The notes: generated by a model not told the origin, from the letters alone. Positions 37,183-64,000 are shown, counted from the first letter of the stretch. The stretch is 64,000 bases of DNA from an uncultured bacterium (GCA_963977015.1 CAXBMO010000011.1:64001-128000), one strand, 5' to 3'. Numbers and translations are program-made.

Positions 37183-37196
37183 CTGCACATCTGGCC

Positions 37197-37265
37197 TAGA
37201 CCCGGCTCTTGCCATTGTGGTTACATTTTGGCAAAGTGTAACCGATCATGGCACACCTTGGTCAT
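37197..37265. promoter_or_regulatory. Back-to-back ECF-sigma-like promoters (TGTAACC-N17-GTC on both strands)
   Basis: GGTTACA (37219-37225) and TGTAACC (37237-37243); each is followed after 17 nt by GTC on its own strand. Confidence 0.45.
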
Positions 37266-37273
37266 ACATTACA

Positions 37274-38941: not shown

Positions 38942-38942
38942 C

Positions 38943-40229: not shown

Positions 40230-40257
40230 TCGCAGGGAGGCTGGCTAGAGTTTCCGG

Positions 40258-41677: not shown

Positions 41678-42508
41678 TTACGGCTTTGAGAGAGCAATCG
41701 GTTCGCCAATACGAGAAAGGTCGACCAGATATTTCGTTCCGGAGCGGTGTTCTCCAGAAGGGTTCTCAAGGACCAATTTTACGCGGGTTGTGCTGCTGGC
41801 CGCGTCGGTTACGGGACTGACAAACTCCAATTTGGCGAGGTATTCTCTGGTCCCGTTTGTCTTTTGAAGCGGCACGGTTTGGCCCGGTTTAAGGTGCTCG
41901 GCTGCTTGGTGAGGGACATGAAGAACGACGTTTAACTGATCAAGTTTCACCAGGGTGAGAACTGGCCCTTGTCCCGGTTGAACGTTCTCACCAACTTCGC
42001 GGTAGATTCGCGATACAATCCCATCAAACGGGCTTCTCAACGTGTGTCGTTCGATCTCTGCCGCAATTCGTTCAACCTGAATTGCCAGGCTGGCCTTCTC
42101 TTCTTTTGCTGCGATGAGTTCGGCGTTGGAGATCTCAAATTCGGCGTTGGCTCGGGCGACTTCATCTCGATTGGCACTACCGGATTTGGCCAAGCGTTCC
42201 AGTTCATCTTTGCGGCGTTTGCGAAGCTCCCAATTGGCCTGGGCCGACTGAATGGTAGATTGGCTTTCCGCTCTGATCTTGGCGATTCGCAACGATGCAT
42301 CGAGAACCTGGCTGTCCAATTTTCCAAGCAGTTCGCCCTCTCTTACGACCTGACCTTCTTGAGCCGGGATCGAGGCGATCACGCCGGATTCAGGAAATGC
42401 CATATCAACCTGGCGGATTGGTTCGGTCGTTCCAATGGTTGGGGTTTGCGCGACGGCAAACGGACTCAGGGTGAAGCTGAGAAGAAGCAGGGAGATTATA
42501 GGTTTCAT
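41678..42508 (-). CDS. Periplasmic adaptor / membrane fusion protein (HlyD/RND-MFP family)
   Basis: Signal peptide, lipoyl halves (SGVI....QEGQVV.EG; LRSPFDGIV), a coiled-coil hairpin and FVSPVTDAASST. Confidence 0.88.
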   Translation of the reverse strand: MKPIISLLLLSFTLSPFAVAQTPTIGTTEPIRQVDMAFPESGVIASIPAQEGQVVREGELLGKLDSQVLDASLRIAKIRAESQSTIQSAQANWELRKRRKDELERLAKSGSANRDEVARANAEFEISNAELIAAKEEKASLAIQVERIAAEIERHTLRSPFDGIVSRIYREVGENVQPGQGPVLTLVKLDQLNVVLHVPHQAAEHLKPGQTVPLQKTNGTREYLAKLEFVSPVTDAASSTTRVKLVLENPSGEHRSGTKYLVDLSRIGEPIALSKP

Positions 42509-42521
42509 CAATTGGGGGGGA

Positions 42522-44504
42522 TTAAGCGAGGCGGAGTTTGGTTTCGTCATTCCATCGATCTTGTTCCATGATGGCGAGCCGGTCCTGGTAGGCTTTTTGT
42601 TCGGCTTTGGATTGAACGCGAAGAAAACGCGAGGAGAGAGAGCTGGGAAGTTCCTCTGCAGAATCTTCGAACTTTTCAGCCATTCGTTTCGCAAGATCGG
42701 GTGCGAATCGAGTCATGATGGAGTCTTCCAGGGAAAGGAAAAGTTGTCCCGAGCCGACCTTGCCCTGACGGGCGGCACGACCCAGCAGTTGCCGGTCCAC
42801 GCGTTGGCTTTCGTCCATTTCCAACACGAGAACATGGAGCCCACCCAGAGCTTCGACCCCGTCACCCAGATCGATATGGGTTCCCCTTCCTGCCATGTTG
42901 GTGGAGATGGTAACGGCATGGGGTTGGCCCGCCGCGGCAATGACTTCTGCCTCGCCTTCATCTTGTTTCGCATTGAGCAAGTGATGAGGAATGCCTGCCT
43001 GATTCAGCAACAGGGAAAGGCGCTCGCTGTTTTCGATGGTTCGAGTACCAACGAGAACAGGTTGCCCCGTATGGTAGAGGCGCCTGATTTCAACAACCGC
43101 AGCGTTCAGCTTTTGCGAACTGGTTCGAAAGACGCGAGGCGGAAAGGTTCTTCGTTGGCTGGGTTTGTTGAGGGGGATGGGAACGACGGGGAGCTGATAC
43201 ACTTCCCAGAATTCTCCGGCGGCTTCGACGGCGGTTCCGGTCATCCCGCCAACGTGATCATACAGGCGGTAAAACTTCTGCCGTGAAATACTCGCCTGAG
43301 ACTCGTTTTCGCAGGTGATGGGTTGGTCTTCCTTGGCTTCGACTGCCTGATGAAGTCCATCTCGCCAACTGCTGCCCTGTTTGACCCGGCCGGTGCATTC
43401 ATCAATGATCAGAACCTCGTTGTTGCGAACGACGTACTGCCGATCTTTGTCCAAGGCGTATTGCGCGCGAAGGGCATTCTCCACATATTTGATCCAGGGG
43501 CGCTTGAGGAGGTTTCGGTCAACTTCCCGGCTTTGGGCCTGTGCTAGTTGCTGACCGGATTCAGTTAGCCAGATTTGTCGCTTTATCGCGTCAAACCCAA
43601 AGTGCAGACCTTCCTCCAACAGGGCAATGGTGTTTCGAGCTGCGTGATAGAGGCTGGTACCGGGATTTTCGCCGTGGGACTTGCCGCTGATGAGCAGCGG
43701 TGTGGTGGCCTCATCGATTAAGATGGCGTCTGCCTCATCAATGATGGCCATGTGGAGACCGCGTTGGGCAAGGGGGAGAGTGCGGGAATCAGAGCCCAGC
43801 AAGGATTTCCAAGTGCGCTCTCCGGGGACGGACTCAGGTTGACGGAGGAGGGTGAGTTGATCGCGAAGGTAATCGAACCCGAATTCAGATCCAGTCCCGT
43901 AGGTGATGTCTGCCTGATAAGCTACTCGCTTTTTCGCGACGGAAACCCTCTCCGGTAACAGGGCGGAGGAGATGCCGAGAGCCTGATATACAGGGAGTCC
44001 GAAGGCATGGTCTCGTTCGGCAAGATAGCTGTTGGCGGTCGCCACGTGAACTCCCTTTCCGGATAAAGAATGGTAGTAGGCCGGGAGCAGTTGGAGCAGG
44101 GTCTTGCCTTCCCCGGTTGCAAGTTCTGCAATCGTTCCCCTGGCCAAAGCCAGGGCACCGAGAATTTGCACATCATAGGGATAGAGACCGAGAATCCGGC
44201 GGCTCACTTCTCGCACCAGGGCGAAGCTGGGGACAAGCAGGTCCTCAAGGGGGCGCCCTGACTGAACCTCTTCACGGTGTTGCCTCGCGAGTGCAACTAT
44301 CGAATGAAGGTCTCTTCGCGCGAACTCGGGAGCGAGTTGGTTGATGGCGGAGAGATGTTCCTGATCAGATGGTTGTCGCGCCTTTCGGGGAGAGAGGGTG
44401 TGTGTTGCGTGAAAGGCTAAAAAAGGAGCGGGTGCGTATTGACGGCGAAGTGTTTCCCAAAATCCGGGAAGTGCGTTTCGAGAGGATGAAGGAGGACGTG
44501 CCAA
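42522..44504 (-). CDS. secA: Accessory, C-terminally truncated SecA paralogue (660 aa)
   Basis: Motifs PYDVQ, ATGEGKT, FGFDYLRD, IDEADAILIDEA.TPL, GLHQAVEAKE, GMTGTA, TNMAGRGT and QL.GR.ARQG..G. It ends early in the helical scaffold region. Confidence 0.92.
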   Translation of the reverse strand: MARPPSSSRNALPGFWETLRRQYAPAPFLAFHATHTLSPRKARQPSDQEHLSAINQLAPEFARRDLHSIVALARQHREEVQSGRPLEDLLVPSFALVREVSRRILGLYPYDVQILGALALARGTIAELATGEGKTLLQLLPAYYHSLSGKGVHVATANSYLAERDHAFGLPVYQALGISSALLPERVSVAKKRVAYQADITYGTGSEFGFDYLRDQLTLLRQPESVPGERTWKSLLGSDSRTLPLAQRGLHMAIIDEADAILIDEATTPLLISGKSHGENPGTSLYHAARNTIALLEEGLHFGFDAIKRQIWLTESGQQLAQAQSREVDRNLLKRPWIKYVENALRAQYALDKDRQYVVRNNEVLIIDECTGRVKQGSSWRDGLHQAVEAKEDQPITCENESQASISRQKFYRLYDHVGGMTGTAVEAAGEFWEVYQLPVVPIPLNKPSQRRTFPPRVFRTSSQKLNAAVVEIRRLYHTGQPVLVGTRTIENSERLSLLLNQAGIPHHLLNAKQDEGEAEVIAAAGQPHAVTISTNMAGRGTHIDLGDGVEALGGLHVLVLEMDESQRVDRQLLGRAARQGKVGSGQLFLSLEDSIMTRFAPDLAKRMAEKFEDSAEELPSSLSSRFLRVQSKAEQKAYQDRLAIMEQDRWNDETKLRLA

Positions 44505-44513
44505 GGTTCCGAA

Positions 44514-46394: not shown

Positions 46395-46432
46395 GTGTGT
46401 GGGGGGAAAGTGGGGGGGATGGGAGGGGTGCG

Positions 46433-49400
46433 TTAACAGCCTGAGGTGAGCCCGGTGAGGCCGGACTGTGAAGCGAACTCATATCGATAGGAATTCCAGC
46501 ACAGCTGAATGATGGATTCGCTGGAGTTGTAGACTTGCAGGACCTGTTGTGCTGAGCGGAGCGTGAAAATGTCCTGCTGAGTGAGCTCTGATGTATAATA
46601 GGTTCCGCTGTTGTAGGTAGGACCAAAATAGGTCCGGAAGTTGTAGCCCGTAGTGTCCGAAGCATTGTGAACGGCTGCAGTCTGGCGCATCACAATGGTA
46701 TGAGGTGCTTCATCGATGGTGGCTGACTGGAAGGTAATGACCCAGTTTCCACCGGAGTCTGCCACGGTTTGCGAAGAACCAATAAGTTGCCCTTGTTGGT
46801 TATAGACTTCCAGCACAACGGTTGATCCGGGTTGGACCAAACCACTGTTCATGTGGTGTGCTATTGAGGTGGGCAACCGGAGGTGGAAGTGATCTCCTCC
46901 TCCAAAGTGTCGGCCCAAGCTGGAGAACCCCTTTTCTGAGAATCCATCTGCCAGGCGGGAATCAGCAAATGAATCATTGCCCAAATACCCACGTTGATTG
47001 TCTTCACCAAAAAGGAAGTTCTGGATGGTGTCGAACTGAAGTACGGGCCAGTCTTCGGATTCTGGCTCTTCCTCTTCGATGATGGGAACCGGTGTGATGA
47101 GAGTCGTGTCTGTGTCCCGGTTGTTTGCCGGGGATGGATCGGGACCTCCTGATCCATCGTCTTTGATCGTTACGGTGTTGAGGATGACTCCTGCGTTCCA
47201 GACGCGAACCGAAACCGTTACCGATCCCGACTGGCCGGGGGCGAGTTGCCCGAGGTTCCAGGTGACGTTGCTTCCACTGTATCGACCGCCGTCCGATGCC
47301 GCCAGGAACTCAACTCCCGTAGGCAATGTGTCCGTGAGGACCACGCCGCTGGAAATTTGGTTGCCAACGTTAGTGTAACTCAGAGTGTAAGTGAGCGTTT
47401 CGCCGACTTCAGCGGTGTCGCGTCCATCGGTTTTGGTCACCACCAGATCCGGGGACGCGATGACCGGAGTCTCTTCATCGTCGGTGTTGTTCGCAGGTGT
47501 CGGATCGATGTCGAGATGAGTGACGTTCGCGGTATTGGTAATGGACTCCAAGCCTGCAGGAATCACGGCAGGCGCGGCGAGGGAGATTGTCACTTCTACC
47601 GTATCACCAATGACAATGTCAGGAAGGGCGATGGTGATGATCCCCCCGGAAAGGGTGCCAACAGGGGATGAACCGATGGGAGTGAATCCATGCTGCAGAA
47701 ATTCAGAAATATCGTCCGTAATTTCGACTCCCAGGGCATCTGCCCGTCCTATATTGGTAATCGAAAGTGTGTAGGTGACGTCCCCGCTCGGTGAGAATGT
47801 GGCCCCTCCATCGTCTTTACTGATGCGAAGGTCGGGTTGAAACACCTCTACGGTTTCGGAATCGGTATCGTTATAGTCATTGAGCGCTCCGCCCGGATCA
47901 GCCGGATCCCCCGTGCGTTCGTCAGAATTGGTTCCCGCTGTTGAGGTCCATTCCAATTCGGCATTGTTGACAATAACACTGTCAAAATCGGAAGTTGAAG
48001 ACGTGACGGTCGCTTCGAATGTCAACTCCACGCTTTCCCCGATATCGAGGCGATTGAGGACAACAGCCAGGGCGGAAGCGGTGCTGTTGTTCGCGGTAAT
48101 GGTGGTCGGGTTGGCCGGCGCTCCCAGCACGGTCAGCTGAATCGAGGATGGATCGAGCACGAGCTCAGATGGAAGCGAGTCGAGAACATCAATATCGAAC
48201 GCATCCGCAGGAAAAAGGCCGCCGGTGTTCTCAATCGTCAGAGTGTAGGTGAGCGTTTCACCAAGCTTGGGTCTGAGGTTGTCGACCGTTTTCTGAATGT
48301 CAAGTTCGGGCTCGACAAGGCTGATGGAGACTTGGTCCTGATCCTGGGGTAGGGCGGCATCGTTGACGTCTTCAGCATCGACGGTTGCGTCATTGGTCAG
48401 CGTCGTGCCGCCCTGATTGGTGGCGACGTTCTCGACAATGGTCTGATAGGTGATGACGAAGGAATCATCTGAGCCGTTATTGGTGGAACTGTTCACCACG
48501 TCCCCGAGATCCAGGGTTAACAGCCCGGTGCCGGAGACCCAGGTTTCAGAAATGGCACCGATGGAGATGAGGGCGTTGCTCTGGCCTGCGTCAAGGGTGG
48601 CGGAACCGGTGACGTATCGCATTCCAGCAGGCAAGCGGTCCTGGAGAACGAGAGCTGGAGTTGTTCCCTCCATGATCGTAACCTCCAACTCAAAGGTGAC
48701 GGTTTCGCCCACCGCGTAGGTGGTTGATGCTCCCGATGGAAGCCGCTTGTCTAGTGAGAGTTCCTCAATGACAGTGGCTGTTGCTGCCGTTGCGGTATCG
48801 GTGTAATCGTTGGCCCCGGTCCCATCTCCATTCCTTTCTTCGGTGCTGGACCCATCCAAACTCGTCCATTGTACCGTGGCCTCATTTTGGATAACCTGGT
48901 TTGGTTCGACCGTATTGTTGAGGACTCCGGAAATGGCGATGGAAATGGATCGGCCAAGCGCGAGGTCGTAACCTCCGGAAACGGTTCTCAGCTCGTTGCC
49001 TACCAGTTCAAAGGATGTCTTGATGTTTCCGGCAACGGATTCCGTGATGGTAACGCCAGAGGAGAAGTCGACGGTCACGCCGGATGGGATGAGATCGCTG
49101 AACACCAGGTCTCTGGCGTCGGCCGTTGAAGCTCCCGTATGCTCGATGACGATGTTCCACGTGATGGCATCACCGGAATCCACGTTGGTGGTGGCACTTG
49201 TCAGGGTTTTGCTGACCGTGACGTCGGGCTCCACGATTTCAACATCCTCAAAATCGGAGAGCATTTGGGCTCCGATGTCGCTGTCGTAGTACAGTTGCCC
49301 GGTGTTTCGGATGACATCACCATCCTGGTTCTCCCCATCATTCACGACCAAAGCTTGAACGGTGATGATGACTTGAGAGTCCGTCACCGTGCCGCTCGTG

Positions 49401-55400: not shown

Positions 55401-57718
55401 ATGACAAAGCCGTTCGAGCTTGCAAAAGTCGCCAGATCGATCACGGGATCGAGGCCGGACAGACTTGGGTTGCCGGAATCATCGATTCCGCCATCTCCGG
55501 TATCATCAGGGCCCTGAGAGCCGTAGAAGGTATCTCCAGAACCGAAACTGATCCGGCCTGCTGTCGTATAAGCCGTTCCCGCATCAAAATCATAAACCTG
55601 GCTGTCGTCGATGCTTGAAGCATCGAAAATGGGAAGCGGTAGAAAGTCTTCCAGACGAAGGCTCTCAAACTCCGTGGTCGGCAGTTCATAGCTAATTCGG
55701 TAGCTCACCAAGTCTCCTGCACTGACATTGTAATCTACCGGGTTCAGTGTGGTGGTACCATGGGAGGTGATGGCGACGACTTCCTTGGAGACCGAACCTA
55801 CCGGAATGGAAACACTCGACGAGCTGCCGTCCGTAACGGTTTGATTGTGGCGGGTCAGGTCGTCGATATCCAGGTTTTCACCGCTGATGGTGACCGTGTT
55901 CGTCAGCTCATCTCCCTGGCTGATCTCTTGTTCACCAGGAACAACGGTGTGCGAGTTTCGAATCTGGACGCGGTAGGTAATGGTTCCTGTCGTGGCGCCT
56001 GCATTGAAAACGGAAGGGTCCACGGATCCCCCACTCAGGCCTCCTGATGGGACCAAGCCACCAAGGATGGGATCCCCACCAGAAATTAAGGTATGACTCG
56101 CCTGTAGCTGTGAGTAGACATCAAACTGAATACTGGTCGATCCATCGGCGTTTACGACCGAAGTGAAGTTTGCGGAGTCGAAGTCGACGGTGATGGTCTC
56201 TCCATGTTGGGTATAGGTTAGCTGAGGAATGATCTCGGATCCGTCAGTCACAAACCCGCCTCGCGCATCGCCGGGGAGGAAGTCTTGCCCATCTCCAAGT
56301 AGGTCGTCCACAACCAAGTCTTCAAATGCGAAATAGTCGGAGACCTGGAAATTTAGCGTGTATTCCAAGATGTCTTGAGGAGAGTTGCCAGCCGCATTGC
56401 GGTCGTCGATGTTTGCGACACCCTTCTGAATGGCCAGGGAATGTTCCTCGAGAACGTAATCCGTTTCCAGATTGCCGGTTACCCCATCCTGACTAGCTCC
56501 GGCGGGACCTTCGTTGTCTGAAACAGGATTGCCGTTCCAAAGCCCGGTAATTTGCGCGTCGTTGTAGGGAGAAATGTCCAGTTGCTCGCCTGTTTCCGGA
56601 TCGATGACGGCGGCACTACTTTCTCCGTCCGTGAAGGGAATGAAGGCTTCGTAGGTGATGGTAATGTCCGTGCCGCTGACCCCGGTGACGGATCCAAATG
56701 AAAGATCAAGCAGGTTGTCTGAAGCTGGGGTTCCCGTCAGGCCATCAGAGTTGATCAGCGGCTCATCATTCGTTGTAAACGCAAGCGGGTTTCCTCCCGA
56801 ATCGAGAACTTGAAGATTTCCGAGATAGGCCAGATCACCGGGAATCACATCAGTAAGGCTCAGGCCGTTCACCGTCTCCCCGGTTGCTACATCAATGCTG
56901 AGGGTATAGGTAACGGGATGGTTGGGGCCGGAAGCCAGTTCGCCAATGTAGGTGCCGTCTTCTTCCGGAACGGCAGCCGTTTTAGTGAGTTGCATCACCA
57001 TTGGCATGACGTCGGATGTGGCCGAAGCTCCAAAGATCGGAGCATCGTCCGGCGCGGCAACGGTTCCCGGATCGTTCAAGGCTGTATGACCCAGCGCGAA
57101 ACCACCCTGAGCCGTAATCCCATAAGACTGGTTTGGTACAATACCGTCAGCCGTATTGAGACTGGCATTAACCGTTAAGGAAAGAGCGGGATTATCCTGA
57201 GAATAGCTTCCAAACGGAAGTTCAACATTATAGACGTATTGACCAATCAGGCTGGGAGTGGTGACGACATCGTAGGTTACCGGAGTGGTTCCTGAGCCCG
57301 CTCCACCATAATATTCGTCGGGAGGAGTTCCAATGCTACTTTCGAACATTGGGTGATCGATGGGCACCGGAGAAGCTGACGAACCGATCTCGATGAGCTG
57401 GCCATCGTTGCCGATTTCACCGATCGGCTCGGTGGCGAGGCCGTCAGGATTGGTTTGCTCGGTCCCGGTCAGGTTGATGGAATTGATCTGGACTTCCGGT
57501 GGTGCGACAATGTCCACATAGGGAGCGAAACCGACCTGGTCTCCGGTATTGTCGAATTCAACGGTGAACTCGATATCATCATTGACCAACTGATCTTCAG
57601 CAACGGTTAGTGCTTCCGTGCTAACGGCAACCTCAGGAACGGCATCGAAGAGAATTCGAGGTTCCAAGGGTTCAAAATGGATATGGGTGGCCTTTTTGCC
57701 TTGTGAGTTTGTAGCCAT
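46433..57718 (-). CDS. Giant (3761 aa) acidic surface protein: LEPRxLL leader, about 20 isopeptide-type/DUF11 Ig-like repeats, C-terminal Ig-like domain
   Basis: N-terminal FEPLEPRILFDA; repeated K...G(D/E).(V/I)TY...D.LP...(I/L)TNTA units; C-terminal G..QPGSTV......G....ADSGGNW. Confidence 0.9.
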   Translation of the reverse strand: MATNSQGKKATHIHFEPLEPRILFDAVPEVAVSTEALTVAEDQLVNDDIEFTVEFDNTGDQVGFAPYVDIVAPPEVQINSINLTGTEQTNPDGLATEPIGEIGNDGQLIEIGSSASPVPIDHPMFESSIGTPPDEYYGGAGSGTTPVTYDVVTTPSLIGQYVYNVELPFGSYSQDNPALSLTVNASLNTADGIVPNQSYGITAQGGFALGHTALNDPGTVAAPDDAPIFGASATSDVMPMVMQLTKTAAVPEEDGTYIGELASGPNHPVTYTLSIDVATGETVNGLSLTDVIPGDLAYLGNLQVLDSGGNPLAFTTNDEPLINSDGLTGTPASDNLLDLSFGSVTGVSGTDITITYEAFIPFTDGESSAAVIDPETGEQLDISPYNDAQITGLWNGNPVSDNEGPAGASQDGVTGNLETDYVLEEHSLAIQKGVANIDDRNAAGNSPQDILEYTLNFQVSDYFAFEDLVVDDLLGDGQDFLPGDARGGFVTDGSEIIPQLTYTQHGETITVDFDSANFTSVVNADGSTSIQFDVYSQLQASHTLISGGDPILGGLVPSGGLSGGSVDPSVFNAGATTGTITYRVQIRNSHTVVPGEQEISQGDELTNTVTISGENLDIDDLTRHNQTVTDGSSSSVSIPVGSVSKEVVAITSHGTTTLNPVDYNVSAGDLVSYRISYELPTTEFESLRLEDFLPLPIFDASSIDDSQVYDFDAGTAYTTAGRISFGSGDTFYGSQGPDDTGDGGIDDSGNPSLSGLDPVIDLATFASSNGFVIEIGDYSLGANDAVSSTIEFIVTVEILDAEYADGLQFTNQVGASEANSFLSTASSSEMAQIILEEPELSITKGVVSTTHPTGVFDSTTGPAGTTFAAPGSASAFSGNAITSDALETQAINANLSAIDAGDLVTFVITVENTGNSSYGAFDVVINDTMPAGFIVPSSGAGLNLRVTDGNGTALTTSGDLFGAGLELTDPSAAQGSLTAYDGASGSNIAIIAYDLLVDSTATALETLTNTAEIVSYSHSEGGTDHADDGELVDTASVTTVAPILAKSVVSTSHNTAANSDSEAVIGEIITYEVTVTIPEGDLEQVEIVDLMDNGLAFVDFLGVTAVSGDLSSSLGALSSITAIVTDPGTTQNSGNTIELGFGSTPGLGTITNTNTDNATAETLTFQYRAVVLNHTGNSEGTRRNNDANLSWNVNGGTQTVDDQASNITIREADIDVSKVVSNANAMADETVTYEFTVTNNGSVEAYDIVLSDVLPEEINSATNLQYLSGVVPDSLTFTPGAPEGTISASWATLAVGESAVFSIDVTVDTGLDVNTTVTNTATATWTSLPGDPGVISTHNQYSIERSGDTSDPLFATQNDYSESNDAAFVVPNPQGDKAIIDTSEGHTSNDTSAAGQVNAVPGEIIRYEVTIDLPQGNMTNLSLVDTLEAGLQFLAPADNNVTVQLNGFDAGGGTYVAADLPANVHTSAQTLDPGQITVNGQIITFDFGQITNNETDSGSAESLTISYNVIVSNDDGTNVFRGNTLTNSAQVQVNGVDSGSPATIDANVVQPQVSISKSDNGASSADAGDVISYTLTITADSNINAATAYDLNITDTLPAELEIDGGSLTFSGLPGYVVTSSLGVVGQDITAFIDQLEAGDSFEITFDARVRDSGTDQIGAGQTVTNTANLTYSSLPGSGTADGSGDNATGSVAGASGDTDGERVYTDADSESFSSPDATISKVLATPADTTYTIGETVEYVLTITVPEGQTDNAVVVDALEAGMSYISGTLTVTAGAGITVTTAGPYDDTNNVFFTRTDPGTTSDEQLQLDFGTIEFNEGASGDGLATQTIEIRYSALVDNIASNQNNVVRSNIADLNWTDGSGAAQVSSDSTPDDDTDITIVEPDLSVTKSITNDVSGLDAGDTVTYQILVQHTGSSTADAFDLDLSDALPDGILENFTLVSATLDAADVSGSFNIDGSNDLVQTGNLDLAQGEVLTLTITGQVRDDANPSDAIANTANLTWSGIDGTDSGERDGSGGVNDYSDSDSANTSVQGVLDVTKSIPAGTTEVLVGDTITYQLEVSIAEGTLTNLSIVDTLPDGMTLDLGSVQISNINGMTVTDFAAAQVGQVLTITASSVLNPGNSDDSTTSDTDSFFITYDATASDDPVNVYNTAVLTNDADASADGVSDDNDNQVSVTVVEPVLEFEKTLTGADSGDAGDVFNYTFTINHDATSGADAMDVILTDTIPSGFQLVPGSINGTGATPDPDLTTISGTGTGLAGETITLRWETIPQSIDAANPYEVTMQFVMVDSITDLSSNIVNSATLNYDHDPDDGAGRSATPIVSAADPVDPDLAYAFTKSVISTSENGDLGGQGDPLLQDLVIGEEVTFELVATFGEGTTTDVVITDTLPFTASNGTANGVLELVSGTITSIGSGITSISSGLSVSDSGTVTGTSPDVIEFDFGDIVAEGNNADDSTITIRITARVANVVQNQTGDLLTNDGELSIYSGAQTFDDQASVEVFEPQIVAGVFIDSIPAEPDSGDTVSYEATITNPTQFSAYDSTYVSSLPTEIALQTGTFTAISNISGDVSASFTALTSGVTSNAPFTLAAGETITFTYDALLTGAVTDGSTYTNNVQVDWTSIDGANANERTGDDGQGGALDDYEANASVSFTTEVSDTFAFDKVFVSGDAAHTGITEGTSGTIPDLVIGEVVTYQLVATIGNGTTTNVSIVDQLDPTNGLLHIQSATVTGGSNLTSDQGIITGMSPSITDTDADTYDDRIVLNLGTITNTGTSGTVTDSQVIITVQALVVNDGENQDGDVIRNTGQLYYDSDIGAQMLSDFEDVEIVEPDVTVSKTLTSATTNVDSGDAITWNIVIEHTGASTADARDLVFSDLIPSGVTVDFSSGVTITESVAGNIKTSFELVGNELRTVSGGYDLALGRSISIAISGVLNNTVEPNQVIQNEATVQWTSLDGSSTEERNGDGTGANDYTDTATAATATVIEELSLDKRLPSGASTTYAVGETVTFELEVTIMEGTTPALVLQDRLPAGMRYVTGSATLDAGQSNALISIGAISETWVSGTGLLTLDLGDVVNSSTNNGSDDSFVITYQTIVENVATNQGGTTLTNDATVDAEDVNDAALPQDQDQVSISLVEPELDIQKTVDNLRPKLGETLTYTLTIENTGGLFPADAFDIDVLDSLPSELVLDPSSIQLTVLGAPANPTTITANNSTASALAVVLNRLDIGESVELTFEATVTSSTSDFDSVIVNNAELEWTSTAGTNSDERTGDPADPGGALNDYNDTDSETVEVFQPDLRISKDDGGATFSPSGDVTYTLSITNIGRADALGVEITDDISEFLQHGFTPIGSSPVGTLSGGIITIALPDIVIGDTVEVTISLAAPAVIPAGLESITNTANVTHLDIDPTPANNTDDEETPVIASPDLVVTKTDGRDTAEVGETLTYTLSYTNVGNQISSGVVLTDTLPTGVEFLAASDGGRYSGSNVTWNLGQLAPGQSGSVTVSVRVWNAGVILNTVTIKDDGSGGPDPSPANNRDTDTTLITPVPIIEEEEPESEDWPVLQFDTIQNFLFGEDNQRGYLGNDSFADSRLADGFSEKGFSSLGRHFGGGDHFHLRLPTSIAHHMNSGLVQPGSTVVLEVYNQQGQLIGSSQTVADSGGNWVITFQSATIDEAPHTIVMRQTAAVHNASDTTGYNFRTYFGPTYNSGTYYTSELTQQDIFTLRSAQQVLQVYNSSESIIQLCWNSYRYEFASQSGLTGLTSGC

Positions 57719-57853
57719 CTGAGGAGGGGGGAATCAGAAGTCAACTATTGGGTAGTTGAGTCTTTTAATAAATATTATAAATATAATAAAACAATATGAA
57801 ATATTAAGATATTAGTGATCTAAAGGAACGGAGACTATATCGGGGCGCGATAC

Positions 57854-60064
57854 TTACTGGACTCTGGTCTCTGCTCTCCTCATCGAGCGGCCAATCGAAT
57901 TCCGAAGCAGTTCCCATAGAGTTTGTGGGATACCTGCATAAATTCTAACGTAGCCAATTTCACCGGTTTCGACTCGTTGGCTCGAGGTGGGGCTCAAATT
58001 GGCAACGGCCTCAAAATGAGGGGCTACCAGCTCGAATTGCCGCGCAAAGATATCGCCGGGATGTTCGGTCTTGATCGCATCCTCGTCGGAACTGGAGGCC
58101 AGAATTTTGCGGGCGACCAAAGGGCCGCCTGATGGGGTCACCAGTCCAAAGTGAGGTATCTGAGTGGAAGCATGAGGGTTCACTCGGGTGAGTTCTGCCG
58201 GAATTCGAGTAATACGCCCGCGAGCGAGAAAGGTTGCGGCTTTGCTCTTGCTATCTTGAAGGCGCATGGCGATTTCTTCCGGCAATGCCATGACGAGCTG
58301 TTTGGTCTCTGCCCGTCCAATGCTACACAGGAGCTGTCCTTTATCGAGATAGGTCCCTTTCAGATTGGCCAGGTCCCTGCCGCTGACGATACCATCACAG
58401 GGAGCCGTCAGGAACAAGGTGTCGACATACCTTTCCAGTTCAATCAGTTGTGTTCTCAGCGTGTTGAGCTGCTTTGATTCGGCTTGATATGCAGAAATAT
58501 TTTCAGACTGAAGATGGCGATCAGCAAGAATGGTGGATCGTTCAACGCTGAGACGAAGTTGCTCCAAACGAGCCTCTTCGTTTGAATTACGGAGTTTGGC
58601 CAACGGTTCACCTTCTTTGACATAGCTGCTGTTGGTGACAAGGAGCTCGTGAACAAAGCCGGGGCATTCCACGCGAACTTCACCATCATTCTTCCAAACG
58701 ACAACGGCGGGAACCTTCACGCTCGGAGTGATTTGGACAAGAGTGAATACCGCACCTATTCCACAGGCAATCAGGGCGATTCGAGCGTAAAATCCAGCCC
58801 TGGATACACCTTCGCTTCGTGCGCGTTTCTGAAGGTATTTTCGAACACTTTGGAGGAATGATAGGATTGTGGCGAGCCCAATCACAATGGCGATGAGAAG
58901 GCCTGTGCCATCCCATTGGCGGCTGAGGAGAGTGAGGATTCCAATGAGAACAATCCCTCTCCAGAAAAATGCAGCAAGGCCATAGATCGTGATCCACCAG
59001 CTACGGTCTTTTTCGGGAACTGGGTGATGATTGGGATCTGCCCCCAGGAGATAGCGTCTGAACCAGAAATTCGCGGAAGATTGGGCTTTCGCATAAAGAT
59101 TGGGAACTCCGGTCAAGTCGGCCAGAATATAGTAGCCATCAAAACGCATCAACGGATTGGCGTTGAACAGAATCGTCGTGACGCTGGAGATGACGATGGC
59201 TTCGTGCAATCCGCGACTCAGCATTCCGGGAGAAAGCTGAGACCAGACAATGGCTGCGATCCCGGCAAGGAAGAGTTCGCCATACATGCCGGCAGCACTG
59301 ACGAAAATGCGATTCCACTTGGAAGGAAACTTAACGGATGACGATGCGTTTACATAACCCAACGGGGTAATGAACATAAACATGACCACGCCCATTTCGG
59401 GCACACTCCCTCCAAATCGCTTGCAAACCAAGGCATGACAGCCTTCATGAAAAATTTTGATGACCACCCAGATGACGGTCAAGAGGAGGAGGTTCCCAAC
59501 TGCAAACATGCCCGCCGTTTCTTCCCGAAAGCGAGTCCAGTGATTGTTGACGGAAACGGCGCCCGCGATGAGAACCGCTATCCAGATGAGAAAGAACCGC
59601 TTGGATACCAACCAGCCGAAGAAGGGCGAGATCCAATCCAGGAAACGGTCAGGGTTGCCCAGGGGAATTCGCCAAAAGACGATGCTTCGACTTTGTTGCA
59701 CGAGTTTTTGGGCGTCCTGTTGGCGGTGATTCTCATCGCGTACCCGGTCGGCATGGACATTCCCGCCGCCCTCAAGTAATCCGGAGTCGGCCAGGGATCG
59801 CACGAGCGTCGTGGCAGCTTGCTCGGAGAGGGCATCGGCCTGTGCCTGAACGGAAAGTTTCCCCACCAATTCAGAGACCGTGGAACTTCCGTCCAACATC
59901 TGGAGGAAGTGATGTTCGATGTGCCCAATACTAAAATAGGTTCCAGCCAGGGGATCCTCCAAAACAAAGTTCCCGTCTTGTCGATAGATCTGGAGATCAT
60001 CGCGAAGCTTGGGCCGCAACGCGGATAGTTCGCGAGTGGATAGATTGGCTTCGGATCGCATCAT
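57854..60064 (-). CDS. Site-2 (M50) metallopeptidase fused to an N-terminal PqqD/RRE-like domain and a C-terminal HlyD-type adaptor domain
   Basis: HEGCH (HExxH in a TM segment), AG.YGE, NANPLMRFDGYY; N-terminal P.LR.DL...LEDP....YF...LDG..TV; C-terminal lipoyl / coiled-coil (APCDG.V). Confidence 0.88.
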   Translation of the reverse strand: MMRSEANLSTRELSALRPKLRDDLQIYRQDGNFVLEDPLAGTYFSIGHIEHHFLQMLDGSSTVSELVGKLSVQAQADALSEQAATTLVRSLADSGLLEGGGNVHADRVRDENHRQQDAQKLVQQSRSIVFWRIPLGNPDRFLDWISPFFGWLVSKRFFLIWIAVLIAGAVSVNNHWTRFREETAGMFAVGNLLLLTVIWVVIKIFHEGCHALVCKRFGGSVPEMGVVMFMFITPLGYVNASSSVKFPSKWNRIFVSAAGMYGELFLAGIAAIVWSQLSPGMLSRGLHEAIVISSVTTILFNANPLMRFDGYYILADLTGVPNLYAKAQSSANFWFRRYLLGADPNHHPVPEKDRSWWITIYGLAAFFWRGIVLIGILTLLSRQWDGTGLLIAIVIGLATILSFLQSVRKYLQKRARSEGVSRAGFYARIALIACGIGAVFTLVQITPSVKVPAVVVWKNDGEVRVECPGFVHELLVTNSSYVKEGEPLAKLRNSNEEARLEQLRLSVERSTILADRHLQSENISAYQAESKQLNTLRTQLIELERYVDTLFLTAPCDGIVSGRDLANLKGTYLDKGQLLCSIGRAETKQLVMALPEEIAMRLQDSKSKAATFLARGRITRIPAELTRVNPHASTQIPHFGLVTPSGGPLVARKILASSSDEDAIKTEHPGDIFARQFELVAPHFEAVANLSPTSSQRVETGEIGYVRIYAGIPQTLWELLRNSIGRSMRRAETRVQ

Positions 60065-60067
60065 CGC

Positions 60068-61918
60068 TTAGGGAAGTTGACGAAGTAGCCAGTTGGTTGG
60101 TGCACGGAGAATGGTCCAAACCGCGGGACGCCAGGGACCATGAATGGTGGCGCGCCCAATTCCTCCGGGGCGAAGGGATTCTTCCGGGTTGGCGATGGTT
60201 GCCTGGCAGACAAACACGTTTTCGCCGTTGCGAAACTCGGAATGGGGGGAAACAAGCGTCAAGTTGGCCTTCCACGTTTTCCCCGGATGAGAGTCAAATC
60301 TCATGGTTACCGATGCGTTGTCCCTGATGAGTGCAATGTCAGACTCCTCGACGGCGATCTCGGCCTGCATCGAATCCAGGGATCCGATTTCAAACAGGCG
60401 CTCGCCGAGTCGAATGATGGCTCCTTCATTTCTTTTGAGGTCGCCGCGTAACACGCGCCCCTCGATTGGAGATTTAATCTGAAGGTTTTCCTGGCGATAA
60501 GTAAGAACGTTGGCCGTTTCGGCTAAGCTGTCGGCTTCGAGTCGAGCCATTTGGGATTCAGCAATTTGGCCGGAACTCATGGCGGCATCCGCCTGTTTCT
60601 CAGCTCGAAGTCGACGGGCGTTGGCGTCGGCCAATTGCCACCGAATTTCACGATCATCCAGGTCCGCAAGCAGTTGTCCGGTTTGGACGACTTCTCCGGG
60701 TTCAACGTGTGCCTTCCGAAGAATGCCATCAAAAGGGGCGGAAACGATTCTTCGGACGGTGGGTTGTAATGTAACCGGGGCATCGACCGGGATCGGGATC
60801 GGAGCGGCCGCGAAGGCGCCCAGACAAATGAGCAAGCTCACGACAAAGCGTCTTTGGTTCGACTTTGCTCGTCCCCACATGCGATGGAGTCGACCGGTCA
60901 TCGCTCCTGGCTTGCCTTTGTGCAGAAGGTGAAGTTGCGGACCTATCAGGTGTTGAGCGGTTTTGAGAAACCGCATCAGTTCCGGAAGCCCTTCCGGCTT
61001 CTTCTTCCAAAGGAACAACCATGCGCCGACAACCCGGTCGTTGTAATAGAGGGGCGCGCACCAATAGTGTTGAGAGGTTGAGTTCCCAAGAAGGGATTGA
61101 ATCTCGGAAGACGCGAGAAAGACGGCGTTGTCAGTCGAATCCAGTTCCCGCTTTCCGTGCACGGTTTCGGTAAGGAGCGCCTGGATCGCGGTTCCCCCTG
61201 CACTCTTCAAAGGAGAATCGCTCTGCATTCCGGAAACGGCCTGTAGCTTGACGTTGCCCGTCTGCTGAGTCGTCGCCAATGCGACGCGGTCACACTTTGC
61301 CAGAACTTGAAGGATATCGACCAATTGAGTGGCTGCGGTGGGGAAATCACTGGCGCAGCCCGTTTTTTCCATGGCCTCGAAAAGTCCGCCAATACGTTGG
61401 GCGGCGAGATTCTCAACCTGGTGCCTCACTTCATCTTCGAGCGCATAGAAGAGCAAGGCGAACCACTGCAGGGTTGCCAATTCTCCTGTCCGCTCAATGC
61501 CGTCGTCATAAGGCATAACCAGACAAAGTCCGTAGTCGATTTTACCTTGTTGTAAGATCGGGACGGTGATGAACGCCAGCGGGGTGTCCTGGACCTCAAA
61601 GTAGTCCGTGCGAGCCTTGCGCTCTTGGCGGCTGAGCATTCCGGTGTGCCAAACACAGGAGATGAGATCCTCCTCCGTGGGACCTTCGGCGAGCGTTATG
61701 GTGGGGGTCGTTTCGTCGCGGAAATCAACCTGGTATGCCCCAATCGCGCGAAAGAGGTGCTTGATGAGGGAAAGCCCGGTTTGACCGCGGAGATGAAAAG
61801 GTAGCTTCGAGATCGACGATATCGCCTCATGCGCACTGGAGTGGCTCAATACCGAACGCTGCGCCAGTCTTTCGGTGGGGATACCCGTTGATCGAGGCTG
61901 CGAGGACGTCATGGTCAT
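60068..61918 (-). CDS. GAF-like domain(s) + TM + HlyD-type membrane fusion protein
   Basis: N-terminal GAF-like patterns (ITVPI....GLCL; CDRVALA...APL....VVGA), one TM helix, then SAPFDGIL..V.PG..V..GQLL..LD and IKSPIEG.V. Confidence 0.82.
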   Translation of the reverse strand: MTMTSSQPRSTGIPTERLAQRSVLSHSSAHEAISSISKLPFHLRGQTGLSLIKHLFRAIGAYQVDFRDETTPTITLAEGPTEEDLISCVWHTGMLSRQERKARTDYFEVQDTPLAFITVPILQQGKIDYGLCLVMPYDDGIERTGELATLQWFALLFYALEDEVRHQVENLAAQRIGGLFEAMEKTGCASDFPTAATQLVDILQVLAKCDRVALATTQQTGNVKLQAVSGMQSDSPLKSAGGTAIQALLTETVHGKRELDSTDNAVFLASSEIQSLLGNSTSQHYWCAPLYYNDRVVGAWLFLWKKKPEGLPELMRFLKTAQHLIGPQLHLLHKGKPGAMTGRLHRMWGRAKSNQRRFVVSLLICLGAFAAAPIPIPVDAPVTLQPTVRRIVSAPFDGILRKAHVEPGEVVQTGQLLADLDDREIRWQLADANARRLRAEKQADAAMSSGQIAESQMARLEADSLAETANVLTYRQENLQIKSPIEGRVLRGDLKRNEGAIIRLGERLFEIGSLDSMQAEIAVEESDIALIRDNASVTMRFDSHPGKTWKANLTLVSPHSEFRNGENVFVCQATIANPEESLRPGGIGRATIHGPWRPAVWTILRAPTNWLLRQLP

Positions 61919-62360
61919 GGCAAGGGAGGCGAAGGCTGAACAAAGTGAAGAGGGAGGTGCTTATCTTGCCTGGGATCCTGCGGTAATTTTCGGTCTTCCG
62001 TCCGGGAAGAGCACGACGATCAGTGGTGTCGGGGAAAGCAAAGGAGGCTGTTTCATGAGGGGGCTTAATTCTAAGCCTTCAAGATATTAAACGCAAATTA
62101 TATTATAATTACCATAATAATGTATGGAGGTGATGATCATAAGGTTTTCCTAACCACTGAATGAATACGCAGCTTCGCGAAAAGCTGGTTCAGCCGCATG
62201 TTCCGTAGCTTCCTGGGCACAGGGGAACGCCTGAAACGAGTGCCTCAGTTGCAATGGCAAGCGGTTGACATGCGCCGGTGGACGGCGAGCCGGGTGAGAG
62301 CACCTACTTCACTGCCGGAAAGGGGGAATGGTGGGAGCGGAAAAGTTCCGCCGATAGGTC

Positions 62361-64000
62361 TTAGGCCGCTGCGGCAGCCGCTGCTGCTGCATCATCCATT
62401 GCGGGAACGGGTGCATTTGTGCCTTCGCCCATTGCTTCCTCAGAAGTTGGGGCGGGTTCCTGGGGGAGCGCCTCGATATTGCCCTGAGTTTGGTTCGGCG
62501 AATCAAGATTGACCGCAGTTCCGTCATCCGTAATCACCTCCAAGGGTGCGTCGCTTCCTTCAGGCTCAACAAGATCTTGTGAAGACGTTTCATGGTAAAC
62601 GAATTGAGCGTCCGCCGCAGTTGACTCAGTGCCATCCGCGAAGCGGACGATGCTTTCACCATGAATCAACACATCACCGTCGGCCGCCGTGTATTCAATG
62701 CCATCACTAACCAAGCCAATGGACTCGATTCCTGCTTCAGTCAGCGATCGAAGTTCGCCTTCGCTCACCATTCCGTCGCCGTCCGCATCCTGCCAGATTT
62801 TGAAGGATTCAAACTCACTATCCGCTGCGGAAAGCACTTGGTCACTGTCGGAATCGAAGTAGAGAAGGCCTTCCATATCGGTTTTGGCGCCATCCACATA
62901 GTCTGTAAATGAGACTTCATGTTTGCCGGAGATTTGGCCATCCTGGTCGGAATCGTAAACCAGAACCGCGTCATCCTGATGTGCCCAAGCGGTTTGTTCC
63001 TGAGCCCCGTCTCCGTCGATATCGAAGCGGATCCCTTCTGCAGCTGAGAGGAACTCGACACCGTCGCCATCCAAATCGATGACGACCGGCGGGGCGGCGG
63101 TAAGCACAAAAATCGTCATCTGAGCTTCGGAACTGACTCCCGTTCCGTCCGTGGCCGTTACTTCGATAAATCGCGGGGTGATGGAGGGGGATGATTCCGT
63201 GTTCTCAAAGGTGATGGCCTGGAGCGCGGTGGTGTAATCCGCCAGGCTGGCCGTTCCCGTCAAGGTGATGGTGAGGGTGCCGGCACCCGATGACGCCACG
63301 GCGCTGATGGAGGCGGGAATGCCGGTGCTATTAAGGACATCGCCGGTTTGCGCATTCGTCAGGGTAATGGTCATGCCCTCGAGATTTGCCGAGTTGAAGT
63401 CGGTGACGTAGCCATCGCTGTCAGCGATGTTAACCGCGTCACCACCTTCGACGAAGCGGGCATACGCCGCGTGGGGCTTGCCACCCGTGCTGGAGTCCTG
63501 GTCCAACACCACATGGGGACGAAACAGGTCGTTGGCCACGGTGGGGTCAGCCGCGCCATCGTTCTGGCCGGAGGGATTACCCTGGGCAAGATAGGTGCCT
63601 TCTCCGGTGATCGTATTCACCGAATAGATCCGGCCGCTATCGTTGTTGAGGATGGCCACATTCCCGTTGGCATCGGAAAACGCTCCGCCCCACGCACTGC
63701 CGTCAGAGGAATGCAAGGGAATCGCATTCGCAAAACTCGTAATCGTCCCGTCCATCGTCATGGAGTAAACCGTGCTGCCCAGGGCTGCCCAAAACAGGTT
63801 ATTCACCGGATCATAGGCGATGTCATGAAAGGTGGCGCTTTCGGACTGGTCAAAGGTTCCGACTTTGGTGCCGTTTTGCACATCGTAGATACTCCACGAA
63901 TCGGTGTTACCCCTTTTGGCATACAGATAACCGTCCGCGGGATTGAATTCCCCCACATATTCACCATTGGCAATACCCGAGCCGATGACGGAGGATGCGC
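62361..64000 (-). CDS. Large acidic secreted protein, C-terminal part (5' end beyond the window): beta-propeller-like region, Ig-like repeat, Ca-binding DxDxDG-rich domain
   Basis: The frame is open to the window edge. Motifs FHDIAYDP...NN.SG.IY...NDGA, GTASLADY..ALQAITF.N and PVVIDLDGDG...FDIDGDG....TAW...WQDADGDG....GEL.SL...GI.SI; poly-Ala tail. Confidence 0.85.
   Translation of the reverse strand, partial: ASSVIGSGIANGEYVGEFNPADGYLYAKRGNTDSWSIYDVQNGTKVGTFDQSESATFHDIAYDPVNNLFWAALGSTVYSMTMDGTITSFANAIPLHSSDGSAWGGAFSDANGNVAILNNDSGRIYSVNTITGEGTYLAQGNPSGQNDGAADPTVANDLFRPHVVLDQDSSTGGKPHAAYARFVEGGDAVNIADSDGYVTDFNSANLEGMTITLTNAQTGDVLNSTGIPASISAVASSGAGTLTITLTGTASLADYTTALQAITFENTESSPSITPRFIEVTATDGTGVSSEAQMTIFVLTAAPPVVIDLDGDGVEFLSAAEGIRFDIDGDGAQEQTAWAHQDDAVLVYDSDQDGQISGKHEVSFTDYVDGAKTDMEGLLYFDSDSDQVLSAADSEFESFKIWQDADGDGMVSEGELRSLTEAGIESIGLVSDGIEYTAADGDVLIHGESIVRFADGTESTAADAQFVYHETSSQDLVEPEGSDAPLEVITDDGTAVNLDSPNQTQGNIEALPQEPAPTSEEAMGEGTNAPVPAMDDAAAAAAAAA

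Follow-up and report, generated by a model that had tools for sequence, protein, structure and literature searches.

A candidate ABC-independent, TolC-ending export module for giant LEPR-leader proteins, with an RRE-M50-HlyD fusion at its centre

In peptidase-containing ATP-binding cassette (ABC) transporters the inner-membrane component carries a protease domain that binds and cuts an N-terminal leader. In daptides, which are peptides made by ribosomes and modified after translation (RiPPs), the leader is removed by MpaP, a site-2 protease fused to a RiPP recognition element (RRE) (10.1101/2023.03.08.531785), and the M50 protease EpeP is thought to cleave and export (PMC10885120). Kamneva, Poudel and Ward (2015; PMC4452313) described a locus of secondary SecA_DEAD and type I secretion system (T1SS)-related genes, proposed SecA_DEAD as the ATPase and M50 as the pore, and remarked on the missing ABC transporter; the accessible text holds no experiment beyond re-analysed microarray data. 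Here we analysed such a locus at positions 41,678 to 64,000 of a 64,000-nt stretch of DNA from an uncultured bacterium (GCA_963977015.1, CAXBMO010000011.1:64001-128000; G000:C11:64001-128000 in our numbering). This stretch is called the window, and coordinates are window positions unless a contig is named. The nearest named homologues were in Verrucomicrobiales. Judged by its sequence, the locus is real and is a member of the module described by genomics in 2015, and its function is predicted here. As the gene set and the idea of a SecA motor have been in print since 2015, neither is new and the novelty of the locus is limited.

The question addressed is how bacterial proteins of 5,000-36,000 aa without a known signal are exported. 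The one in vivo hint is indirect: in Chlorobium, two giants with LEPRxLL (Cag_663 and Cag_665) flank a TolC and are exported, reportedly with no known signal (10.64898/2026.03.19.712371), and their host is among the organisms listed with a second SecA (PMC4452313, S13 Fig). In the accessible text of the former paper the authors leave the leader, TolC and the second SecA unconnected. Giants of Omnitrophota contain a SecA_DEAD domain without scaffold and wing, proposed to aid giant export (10.1101/2023.11.21.568195). Our analysis suggests, with a probability of about 0.55, that six genes of the locus encode a machine dedicated to exporting and processing giant proteins with an N-terminal LEPR-type leader, independent of ABC and ending in TolC. 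What was computed for this reading is the set of parts, the preserved state of their catalytic motifs, the joint occurrence of leader and fusion gene and a predicted leader-RRE-M50 complex; the remaining steps we infer.

The leader, the RRE-M50-HlyD fusion and their predicted complex

An earlier note, made from the sequence of this DNA alone, had described seven co-oriented genes as one export locus. All seven minus-strand open reading frames (ORFs) were found in place, and the domain calls from profile searches agreed with those of the note. Six of them most likely form the module: a GAF-HlyD adaptor, an RRE-M50-HlyD fusion, a 3761-aa giant, a TolC, a short SecA and a small HlyD. The seventh, encoding a 1342-aa acidic protein, most likely lies outside, as the protein is without an LEPR leader, does not have the C-terminal domain common to the genome's 13 LEPR giants, and has homologues that travel with the neighbouring ABC system in relatives. 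A seven-gene locus was therefore rejected and the gene placed with the neighbouring T1SS described below.

The AlphaFold2 (AF2) model of the fusion had a mean predicted confidence (pLDDT) of 90.8, and the intramembrane M50 protease had about seven hydrophobic segments. The RRE (residues 16-99) matched lasso-peptide B1-leader complexes (6jx3_B, Z 10.2, root-mean-square deviation 3.0, 84 residues aligned; 5v1u_A, Z 9.9, deviation 3.0, 82 aligned) as well as PqqD (5sxy, Z 9.2). Residues 436-724 matched MacA/MexA adaptors by structure comparison, and adaptor matches dominated the structure-search lists (Foldseek, VIA). The zinc-site residues H206, E207, H210 and D309 were invariant in 120/120 fusion homologues, indicating that the M50 protease is under selection; among the tabulated sampled loci HExxH was present in 59/59 and the NP-DG pattern in 56/59. 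The idea that M50 is a dead protease serving as a pore was ruled out by these invariant residues. The fusion scored 21.5 bits against Pfam M50, under the gathering score of 27.2, and its top NCBIfam match was the daptide intramembrane metalloprotease NF041824 at 162 bits, with a cut-off of 300.

The 3761-aa giant contained 14% D+E and 2% K+R, and no hydrophobic signal peptide was detected in it by hydropathy and no RTX-pattern match (0). Its leader matched NF012209 at 22.3 bits (cut-off 17) as a single N-terminal LEPRxLL-type motif, in which a basic stretch is followed by an E-x-L-E-P-R-x-L core and then by an acidic linker; L18, E19 and R21 of the leader are invariant. In two related loci, L002 and L008, the gene directly after the M50 fusion encodes an orthologue of the giant (40-42% identity across >3,200 aa), and so it does in a locus of the same genus (L213, 61%). 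The genome held 14 leader-bearing ORFs, taking up ~3.7% of its DNA, 13 of which encode proteins of 2,334-12,519 aa. In all 13 giants net charge was positive before the motif and strongly negative after it, and all 13 shared a C-terminal domain in their last 160 aa (leave-one-out hidden Markov model (HMM), E 1.6e-61 to 0.0037) that was never found internally. The same domain formed the C-termini of six large proteins in related loci, and it is possible that it is a second export or folding element.

We predicted the complex of fusion residues 1-415 with the giant's N-terminal 45 residues, using their own alignments. The leader-fusion pair scored 0.69 compared to 0.02 for the best control, a mark reached by 116/157 solved pairs and 2/215 mismatched pairs. 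Agreement between runs covered no less than 58% of contacts, with a partner pLDDT of 51 or more. In the predicted complex the pairing with RRE strand 42-47 is made by leader residues 15-18, and residues 11-26 of the leader as a whole touch RRE residues 42-50 and 79-94 together with H206, E207, H210 and D309. The model thus predicts that the RRE binds the LEPR-type leader into the M50 zinc site. The earlier note had cast the M50 fusion as the inner-membrane gate; this claim is weakened, as it overlooks the invariant protease site and the predicted leader binding by the RRE. The centre of the system shifts from SecA to the RRE-M50-HlyD fusion.

We surveyed 250 Verrucomicrobiota genomes and 230 genomes that we assign to Pseudomonadota. 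We set the cut-offs ourselves (E-values of 1e-40, 1e-135, 1e-55 and <=0.005; model position >=645), and in phylum-wide searches with long queries 4-6 candidates per genome were scored. Leaders were counted with a broader 24-column model (A4), whose seeds include none from the Pseudomonadota sample. The fusion gene was detected in 55/250 Verrucomicrobiota and 61/230 Pseudomonadota genomes. Leader-positive Pseudomonadota genomes numbered 44/230, and all of these carried the fusion (44/44) while 15/44 carried the short SecA; the leader was found with A4 in 0/169 fusion-negative genomes of this sample. For Verrucomicrobiota, where the count is partly circular because seeds came from these genomes, 51/250 genomes were leader-positive, 47/51 with the fusion and 18/51 with the short SecA. 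A T1SS adaptor was found in 57 genomes; of these, 17/20 with the fusion had the leader, compared to 3/37 without it. The leader tracks the fusion and not the classical T1SS.

The narrower model NF012209 detected a leader in 19/20 short-SecA genomes, and an apparent link between leader and SecA was discarded as an artefact, because NF012209 misses LEDR-type leaders and the broader model A4 broke the pattern. In SecA-less loci the large acidic neighbours begin with a variant LEDR-type leader plus DUF4347. A search for DUF4347 in the genome of the window gave no match, and its controls went unmatched too. Strong leader matches were also seen in 674-3742-aa frames of three genomes without the fusion (G052, G115 and G235), which may be orphan cargo, incomplete drafts or clients of another exporter.

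The neighbouring T1SS, the short SecA and the adaptors

The earlier note had seen no ABC transporter and proposed extending the contig beyond position 64000 in search of an ABC or RND gene. No ABC or RND gene lies in the window part of the locus, and to that extent the claim stood. The contig runs past the window, and an ABC gene of the LssB/LapB type with a C39 domain (C39-ABC) starts 4,130 nt beyond its end, 6.2 kb from GAF-HlyD, which rules out that ABC is absent from the neighbourhood. This gene is divergent from the adhesin and TolC genes and belongs to a complete classical T1SS (Table 1), which supplies the only ABC match of the genome at E<=1e-100 and its only TIGR01843 match, and which was present in 3/3 same-genus genomes and 4/12 family members searched. 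The 1342-aa protein matched the Bap/LapF-like model NF045619 under cut-off, and homologues of its ends adjoined the same ABC in 5/5 relative genomes examined and nine metagenome loci. In the same 5/5 relatives the C39-ABC has its own TolC, HlyD and 1342-aa-type cargo, with the contigs of G487, G488 and G490 ending inside the cargo gene. Most likely the 1342-aa adhesin is the cargo of the neighbouring T1SS, and the earlier note, which had counted its gene in the export locus, assigned it to the wrong system.

As the earlier note had named a cognate ABC exporter just upstream among the findings that would refute it, we asked whether this one is cognate; most likely it is not. Among 65 metagenome loci of this ABC (35/65 spanning at least 10 kb) the module adjoined it in one, L141, which is 100% identical to the window locus and may be the same assembly, and in 0/64 of the others. 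The same-genus genome G487 carries an orthologous module (L213, 58-62% identity) with unrelated genes upstream and no T1SS. A T1SS ABC, a T1SS adaptor or a T1SS-type TolC was detected in 0/79 related loci, 41 of them at least 19 kb, and in 0/22 top-scoring sampled loci; other ABC ATPase genes occurred in 6/79 and 2/22. No ABC or RND gene was found on the contig of the second module copy of the genome (C12) or within 24 kb of the copy split between C3 and C7. The T1SS adaptor TIGR01843 was detected in 0/20 other short-SecA genomes of the Verrucomicrobiota sample, and the short SecA and a classical T1SS never occurred together in these 250 genomes. Synteny and profiles led us to reject a cognate role of the neighbouring ABC, and the independence of the module from ABC held up in locus surveys, synteny and genome profiles despite the ABC next door.

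The short SecA comprised NBD1-PPXD-NBD2 plus one scaffold helix with no SecA_SW match, aligned to residues 47-600 of solved SecA chains (778-844 aa) and ended, in its AF2 model, in a helix (621-659). Walker A, DExD and motif VI residues were invariant in 38/38 short SecAs. Beyond motif VI we counted 75-98 residues in 39/42 homologues with a scorable motif VI, compared to 332 in canonical SecA. It therefore has neither the wing nor the two-helix finger/IRA1, as placed by the usual domain boundaries of SecA. The two-helix finger/IRA1 enters SecY and restrains the ATPase (PMC3101351). The short SecA scored under cut-off with all SecA and SecA2 models, and a canonical 1068-aa SecA is also encoded in the genome, on C3.

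The short SecA was never found without the fusion (20/20 in the Verrucomicrobiota sample, 21/21 in the Pseudomonadota sample; G318, with an 891-aa frame and no fusion, was left out as ambiguous) and usually adjoined it (21/22 top-scoring loci). It was absent from 35/55 and 40/61 fusion-positive genomes respectively, and because about two thirds of module genomes do without it, it is not a universal motor. Ten of ten SecA-less fusion genomes checked, four of them single-contig, held one SecA_DEAD gene. The presence of the short SecA was clustered on an M50 tree, a quick tree made without bootstrap, with the fragment L136 left out, and used for this question only. The short SecA is thus a subtype-specific part, and the proposal that the SecA paralogue is the motor is weakened and does not hold generally. 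Three single-contig genomes (G132, G166 and G189) carried fusion and leader with neither a short SecA nor a T1SS adaptor.

The GAF-HlyD adaptor had a cytoplasmic GAF-like region, one predicted transmembrane helix (~aa 356-380) and a periplasmic membrane-fusion domain, and adjoined the M50 fusion in 69/79 related and 57/60 sampled loci. The small HlyD scored 143 bits with TIGR01730, above cut-off, and had an N-terminal hydrophobic signal; its paralogues are 271-272 aa long. All module adaptors were under the TIGR01843 cut-off. The module TolC was 37-40% identical to two paralogues and had no BLAST match at 1e-8 to the TolC of the neighbouring T1SS, and by sequence it is a module-specific subfamily; a TolC of this type was present in 19/22 top-scoring sampled loci.

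Layout of the locus and observations on related copies

The features of the locus and of the adjoining T1SS are collected in Table 1.

Table 1. Positions of the module genes, their elements and the neighbouring T1SS, in window coordinates.
Feature	Position	Strand	Remarks
Small HlyD/RND-type adaptor	41678..42505	-	338-aa ORF beginning at TTG 42694; start probably at Met64
Short SecA-like ATPase, 660 aa	42522..44504	-	SecA_DEAD + PP_bind + P-loop
TolC-family (Pfam OEP) outer-membrane channel, 626 aa	44514..46394	-	
Giant protein, putative cargo, 3761 aa	46433..57718	-	DUF11/Ig-like repeats
Single-copy C-terminal domain of LEPR giants	46436..46915	-	Leave-one-out HMM
LEPR-XLL leader, aa 11-26 of giant	57641..57688	-	NF012209 above cut-off
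AT-rich spacer 5' of giant gene	57719..57853	-	33% GC, core 21%
RRE-M50-HlyD fusion, 736 aa	57854..60064	-	Core marker; PqqD/RRE + M50 + HlyD domains
M50 catalytic motifs HExxH (H206, E207, H210) and NxNPxxxxDG (D309)	59135..59449	-	Homologue alignment
RRE (PqqD-like), ~aa 16-99 of fusion	59768..60019	-	Structural match; Pfam PqqD E 0.009
GAF-HlyD adaptor, 616 aa	60068..61918	-	Pfam HlyD_3, HlyD_D23, weak GAF; hydropathy
442-nt boundary between the two systems	61919..62360	-	Hairpin with T-rich tail 62170-62187; AT-rich patch (30% GC) upstream of GAF-HlyD
1342-aa Big_9/cadherin/DUF6923 adhesin, C-terminal part	62361..64000	-	Full gene 62361-66389
Complete classical T1SS	62361-71589		G000:C11:126361-135589 = L001:2361-11589; adhesin + TolC (-), divergent ABC + HlyD
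Second TolC, after the 1342-aa gene	66482-68035	-	
C39-ABC, LssB/LapB type	68130-70334		TIGR03375 802 bits, cut-off 693
T1SS HlyD	70177-71589		TIGR01843 350 bits, cut-off 209

The gaps inside the blocks were 3 nt (GAF-HlyD/M50 fusion), 38, 9 and 16 nt (the last counted from the Met64 start), in agreement with the 3-38 nt given earlier. Between blocks the gaps were 135 nt (M50 fusion/giant) and 442 nt (1342-aa acidic gene/GAF-HlyD). By its composition the 135-nt spacer is a probable internal promoter for the giant-TolC-SecA-HlyD block. The hairpin in the 442-nt boundary is weak evidence of a terminator, because the 12 terminator-like sites seen are no enrichment over the 10.6 that shuffled sequences would give, and a scan for terminators and promoters gave nothing above chance. 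Upstream of three start codons (window 46395-46424, 57719-57748 and 61919-61948) the sequence was C/T-rich and not Shine-Dalgarno-like. At the other end DUF1549/DUF1553, DUF1501 and sulfatase genes (36674-41676) converge on the module; these are typical genes of Planctomycetes-Verrucomicrobia-Chlamydiae (PVC) bacteria and unrelated to it.

Elsewhere in the genome, LEPR giants of 4,990-12,519 aa form tandem arrays of four (G000:C3:231727-314212) and two (C14:86633-151779). No module copy adjoins the C3 array and none lies on C14, implying export in trans, and in our reading a single module set would handle every one of the genome's 13 giants. A 183-aa ORF (G000:C7:182729-183280) encodes little beyond a LEPR leader and a 134-aa ORF (C2:169774-170178) the shared C-terminal domain alone; each is possibly a decoy, a regulator or a remnant. 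The C12 module copy had several genes between TolC and GAF-HlyD (G000:C12:111054-115424). The insert includes DUF3467 and, judged by eye from N-terminal sequence, radical-SAM-like and halogenase-like ORFs, the latter with a homologue in locus L216. DUF3467 adjoins the C7 and C12 module copies and not the window copy.

Among related loci, a SecA-less clade (L110, L114, L118-L120, L129, L131, L132, L134, L135 and L139) had a shorter GAF-HlyD (~460 aa) and a TolC-Sel1 fusion; its cargo combined a very short LEDR-type leader, DUF4347 (in the four scanned) and a shared C-terminal helix motif of amphipathic appearance. In L103 and L105 the module copies adjoined 423-1097-aa proteins with a LEQRQLLA-type leader and a Wzt-type polysaccharide ABC ATPase, and these are possibly smaller cargo, glycosylated surface proteins. 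A plasmid collection yielded 61 plasmid or chromid records matching the fusion. Methylosinus is among them, with a complete module and a giant LamG protein (L219), and Escherichia and Citrobacter contribute 17 and 8 matching records. Cultured hosts of the module include Methylorubrum extorquens AM1 and Ruegeria pomeroyi DSS-3, both in S2 Table of PMC4452313, and Cupriavidus metallidurans CH34, whose locus L218 holds a large ORF, an adaptor, GAF-HlyD and M50-HlyD, and no SecA within 32 kb.

Proposed mechanism, rival readings and relation to known systems

In the mechanism we propose, the cargo would be synthesized in the cytoplasm and carry neither a Sec nor a Tat signal. Its leader would be captured by the RRE of the fusion in the inner membrane, by analogy with RiPP systems, and the residues just past the motif would enter the zinc site and be cut, much as by the C39 domains of peptidase-containing ABC transporters. 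The entry would be provided by the helices with which the M50 fusion and GAF-HlyD span the membrane, and the three adaptors would form a periplasmic duct to the module TolC. In this subtype only, the short SecA, which lacks the SecY-entering finger, may be a clamp, driven by ATP, that prevents the chain from folding and feeds it.

Several points weigh against this mechanism. Capture alone is a computed prediction, cleavage, pore and energy coupling being steps that we infer, and the predicted complex may echo solved RRE-leader structures. Four leader-positive draft genomes had no fusion even at E 1e-5, and 8/55 and 17/61 fusion-positive genomes gave no leader match at E<=0.005. The counts are given without p-values because related genomes are not independent. 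In 15/55 fusion-positive Verrucomicrobiota genomes, 12 of them leader-positive, there was neither a short SecA nor a T1SS adaptor to point to an energy source. The module adaptors are closer to MacA/MexA (RND types) than to HlyD, a T1SS adaptor was co-oriented upstream of the cargo in 3/38 SecA-less loci (L134, L135 and L139, one genus), and 20/29 genomes of the SecA-less clade hold a T1SS somewhere. The literature searched, which left most subscription papers outside its coverage, held no experiment on any member, no paper tying the leader to the module and, as the earlier note had stated, no mechanistic characterisation; that note had also correctly pointed to bioinformatic reports of secondary SecA_DEAD genes beside T1SS-related genes in PVC bacteria (PMC4452313). 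The accessible parts of a Ruegeria exoproteome paper (PMC2953401) and of PMC4809877 held nothing usable on module cargo.

Export could instead proceed in two steps, with SecYEG carrying the giant across the inner membrane, fed by the short or the canonical SecA, RRE-M50 acting as a leader peptidase and the adaptor-TolC duct loading from the periplasm. MacAB/RND-type pumps take periplasmic substrates, and the closest relatives of the module adaptors are of MacA/MexA/RND type. The canonical SecA, the only one in the ten SecA-less genomes checked, would give the energy, and an M50 domain is not known to act as a protein channel. Chlorobium LEPRxLL giants were also seen in periplasmic fractions (10.64898/2026.03.19.712371, accessible part), which would fit two steps and counts against direct export. 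We consider this route unlikely, as the leader has no hydrophobic core, the short SecA has neither the wing nor the SecY-entering two-helix finger (for their roles see PMC3101351 and PMC4452313), and of the three adaptors two are joined to domains that face the cytoplasm (RRE and GAF), as expected of a trans-envelope machine. Slightly less likely still is the reading that the RRE tethers the leader in the cytoplasm while the cargo threads C-terminus first by its shared C-terminal domain, until a GAF-gated M50 cut frees it, a LapA/LapG logic with different parts. Classical T1SSs do export the C-terminus first, every one of the 13 giants pairs the leader with a single-copy C-terminal domain, the SecA-less clade shares a C-terminal helix motif in its cargo, and the GAF domain suggests a signal input. 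Such a scheme by itself supplies neither pore nor motor, its C-terminal domain differs between clades, and cargoes of 10,000-20,000 aa would have to stay unfolded until fully made.

The model of the earlier note and of Kamneva 2015 taken literally, with the short SecA as obligatory motor, M50 as a mere pore and proteolysis irrelevant, draws on the constant company of SecA and fusion, the retention of all ATPase motifs and the mutual exclusion of short SecA and classical T1SS in the 250-genome sample. It is very unlikely, given the complete modules with leader-bearing cargo that have no short SecA (35/55 and 40/61), the invariant catalytic residues and the leader predicted in the active site. 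Least likely is a reading in which the neighbouring LssB/LapB-type ABC serves as the cognate motor, which would make the locus an ordinary T1SS that has gained additional genes. The ABC's distance of 6.2 kb and the T1SS adaptors co-oriented with cargo in 3/38 SecA-less loci speak for it, but its own TolC, HlyD and cargo in 5/5 relatives, its place beside the module in 0/64 non-identical metagenome loci, the G487 module with no T1SS upstream and the presence of TIGR01843 in 0/20 other short-SecA genomes leave it largely refuted by synteny.

Carried further, the ABC-independent reading has about even odds of describing a distinct and widespread secretion system, in which the place of ABC is taken by a RiPP-style RRE-M50 leader peptidase joined to a TolC adaptor, the orphan LEPR-XLL motif serves as the signal for export and a SecA without the finger can act as feeder. 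The largest proteins of bacteria, among them the Chlorobium symbiosis proteins of 36,806 and 20,647 aa, would then have their missing export route. If true, it adds an ABC-independent TolC protein exporter and carries the RRE-leader logic of small peptides over to giant proteins, and a short tag might serve the export of large recombinant proteins. The system is directly testable, because the signal (LEPR leader), the receptor (RRE), the predicted cut site (just past the motif) and cultured hosts are all named.

The closest described locus is that of Kamneva 2015, whose accessible text gives the same short SecA without SW besides a canonical SecA, the same M50-HlyD, GAF-HlyD and HlyD with an optional OEP, and no ABC conserved with the module. 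It differs in that no cargo, leader or RRE is named there and M50 appears as a pore candidate only; because that survey was anchored on SecA, the larger SecA-less class is not covered in the accessible text. RRE-dependent RiPP leader peptidases likewise carry the RRE on a site-2/M50 protease and recognise a short acidic-hydrophobic motif (ELExMEAP in daptides), and NF041824 was the top match of the fusion. In contrast, this match reached 162 of 300 bits, the protease is here fused to a periplasmic adaptor, the precursors in the genome are 2,300-12,500 aa long, and the neighbours are a 3761-aa protein and export genes and not short precursors with daptide enzymes. Accessory SecA2 systems (SecA2-SecY2 and SecA2-only) also tie a second SecA-family ATPase to very large surface proteins, but the short SecA lacks wing and finger, scores under the SecA2 cut-offs, has no second SecY among the six genes and occurs in a diderm with TolC and adaptors. 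In Omnitrophota, SecA_DEAD is part of the giant itself, and the text of that paper does not mention M50, HlyD or TolC (10.1101/2023.11.21.568195). With T1SSs, especially peptidase-containing ABC transporters and the LapBCE/BapBCD adhesin exporters, the module shares the TolC exit, membrane-fusion adaptors and large acidic repeat cargo without a signal peptide. It differs in having no ABC, an intramembrane M50 with an RRE in place of a cytosolic C39, three different adaptors, one with GAF, and no RTX nonapeptide in the 3761-aa cargo. Classical T1SSs export in one step, bypassing any periplasmic intermediate, and read a C-terminal signal that usually comes with RTX repeats; in the giant, 0 RTX-pattern matches stand beside the shared C-terminal domain. 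By analogy, the module would work like a peptidase-containing T1SS without being a member of that family.

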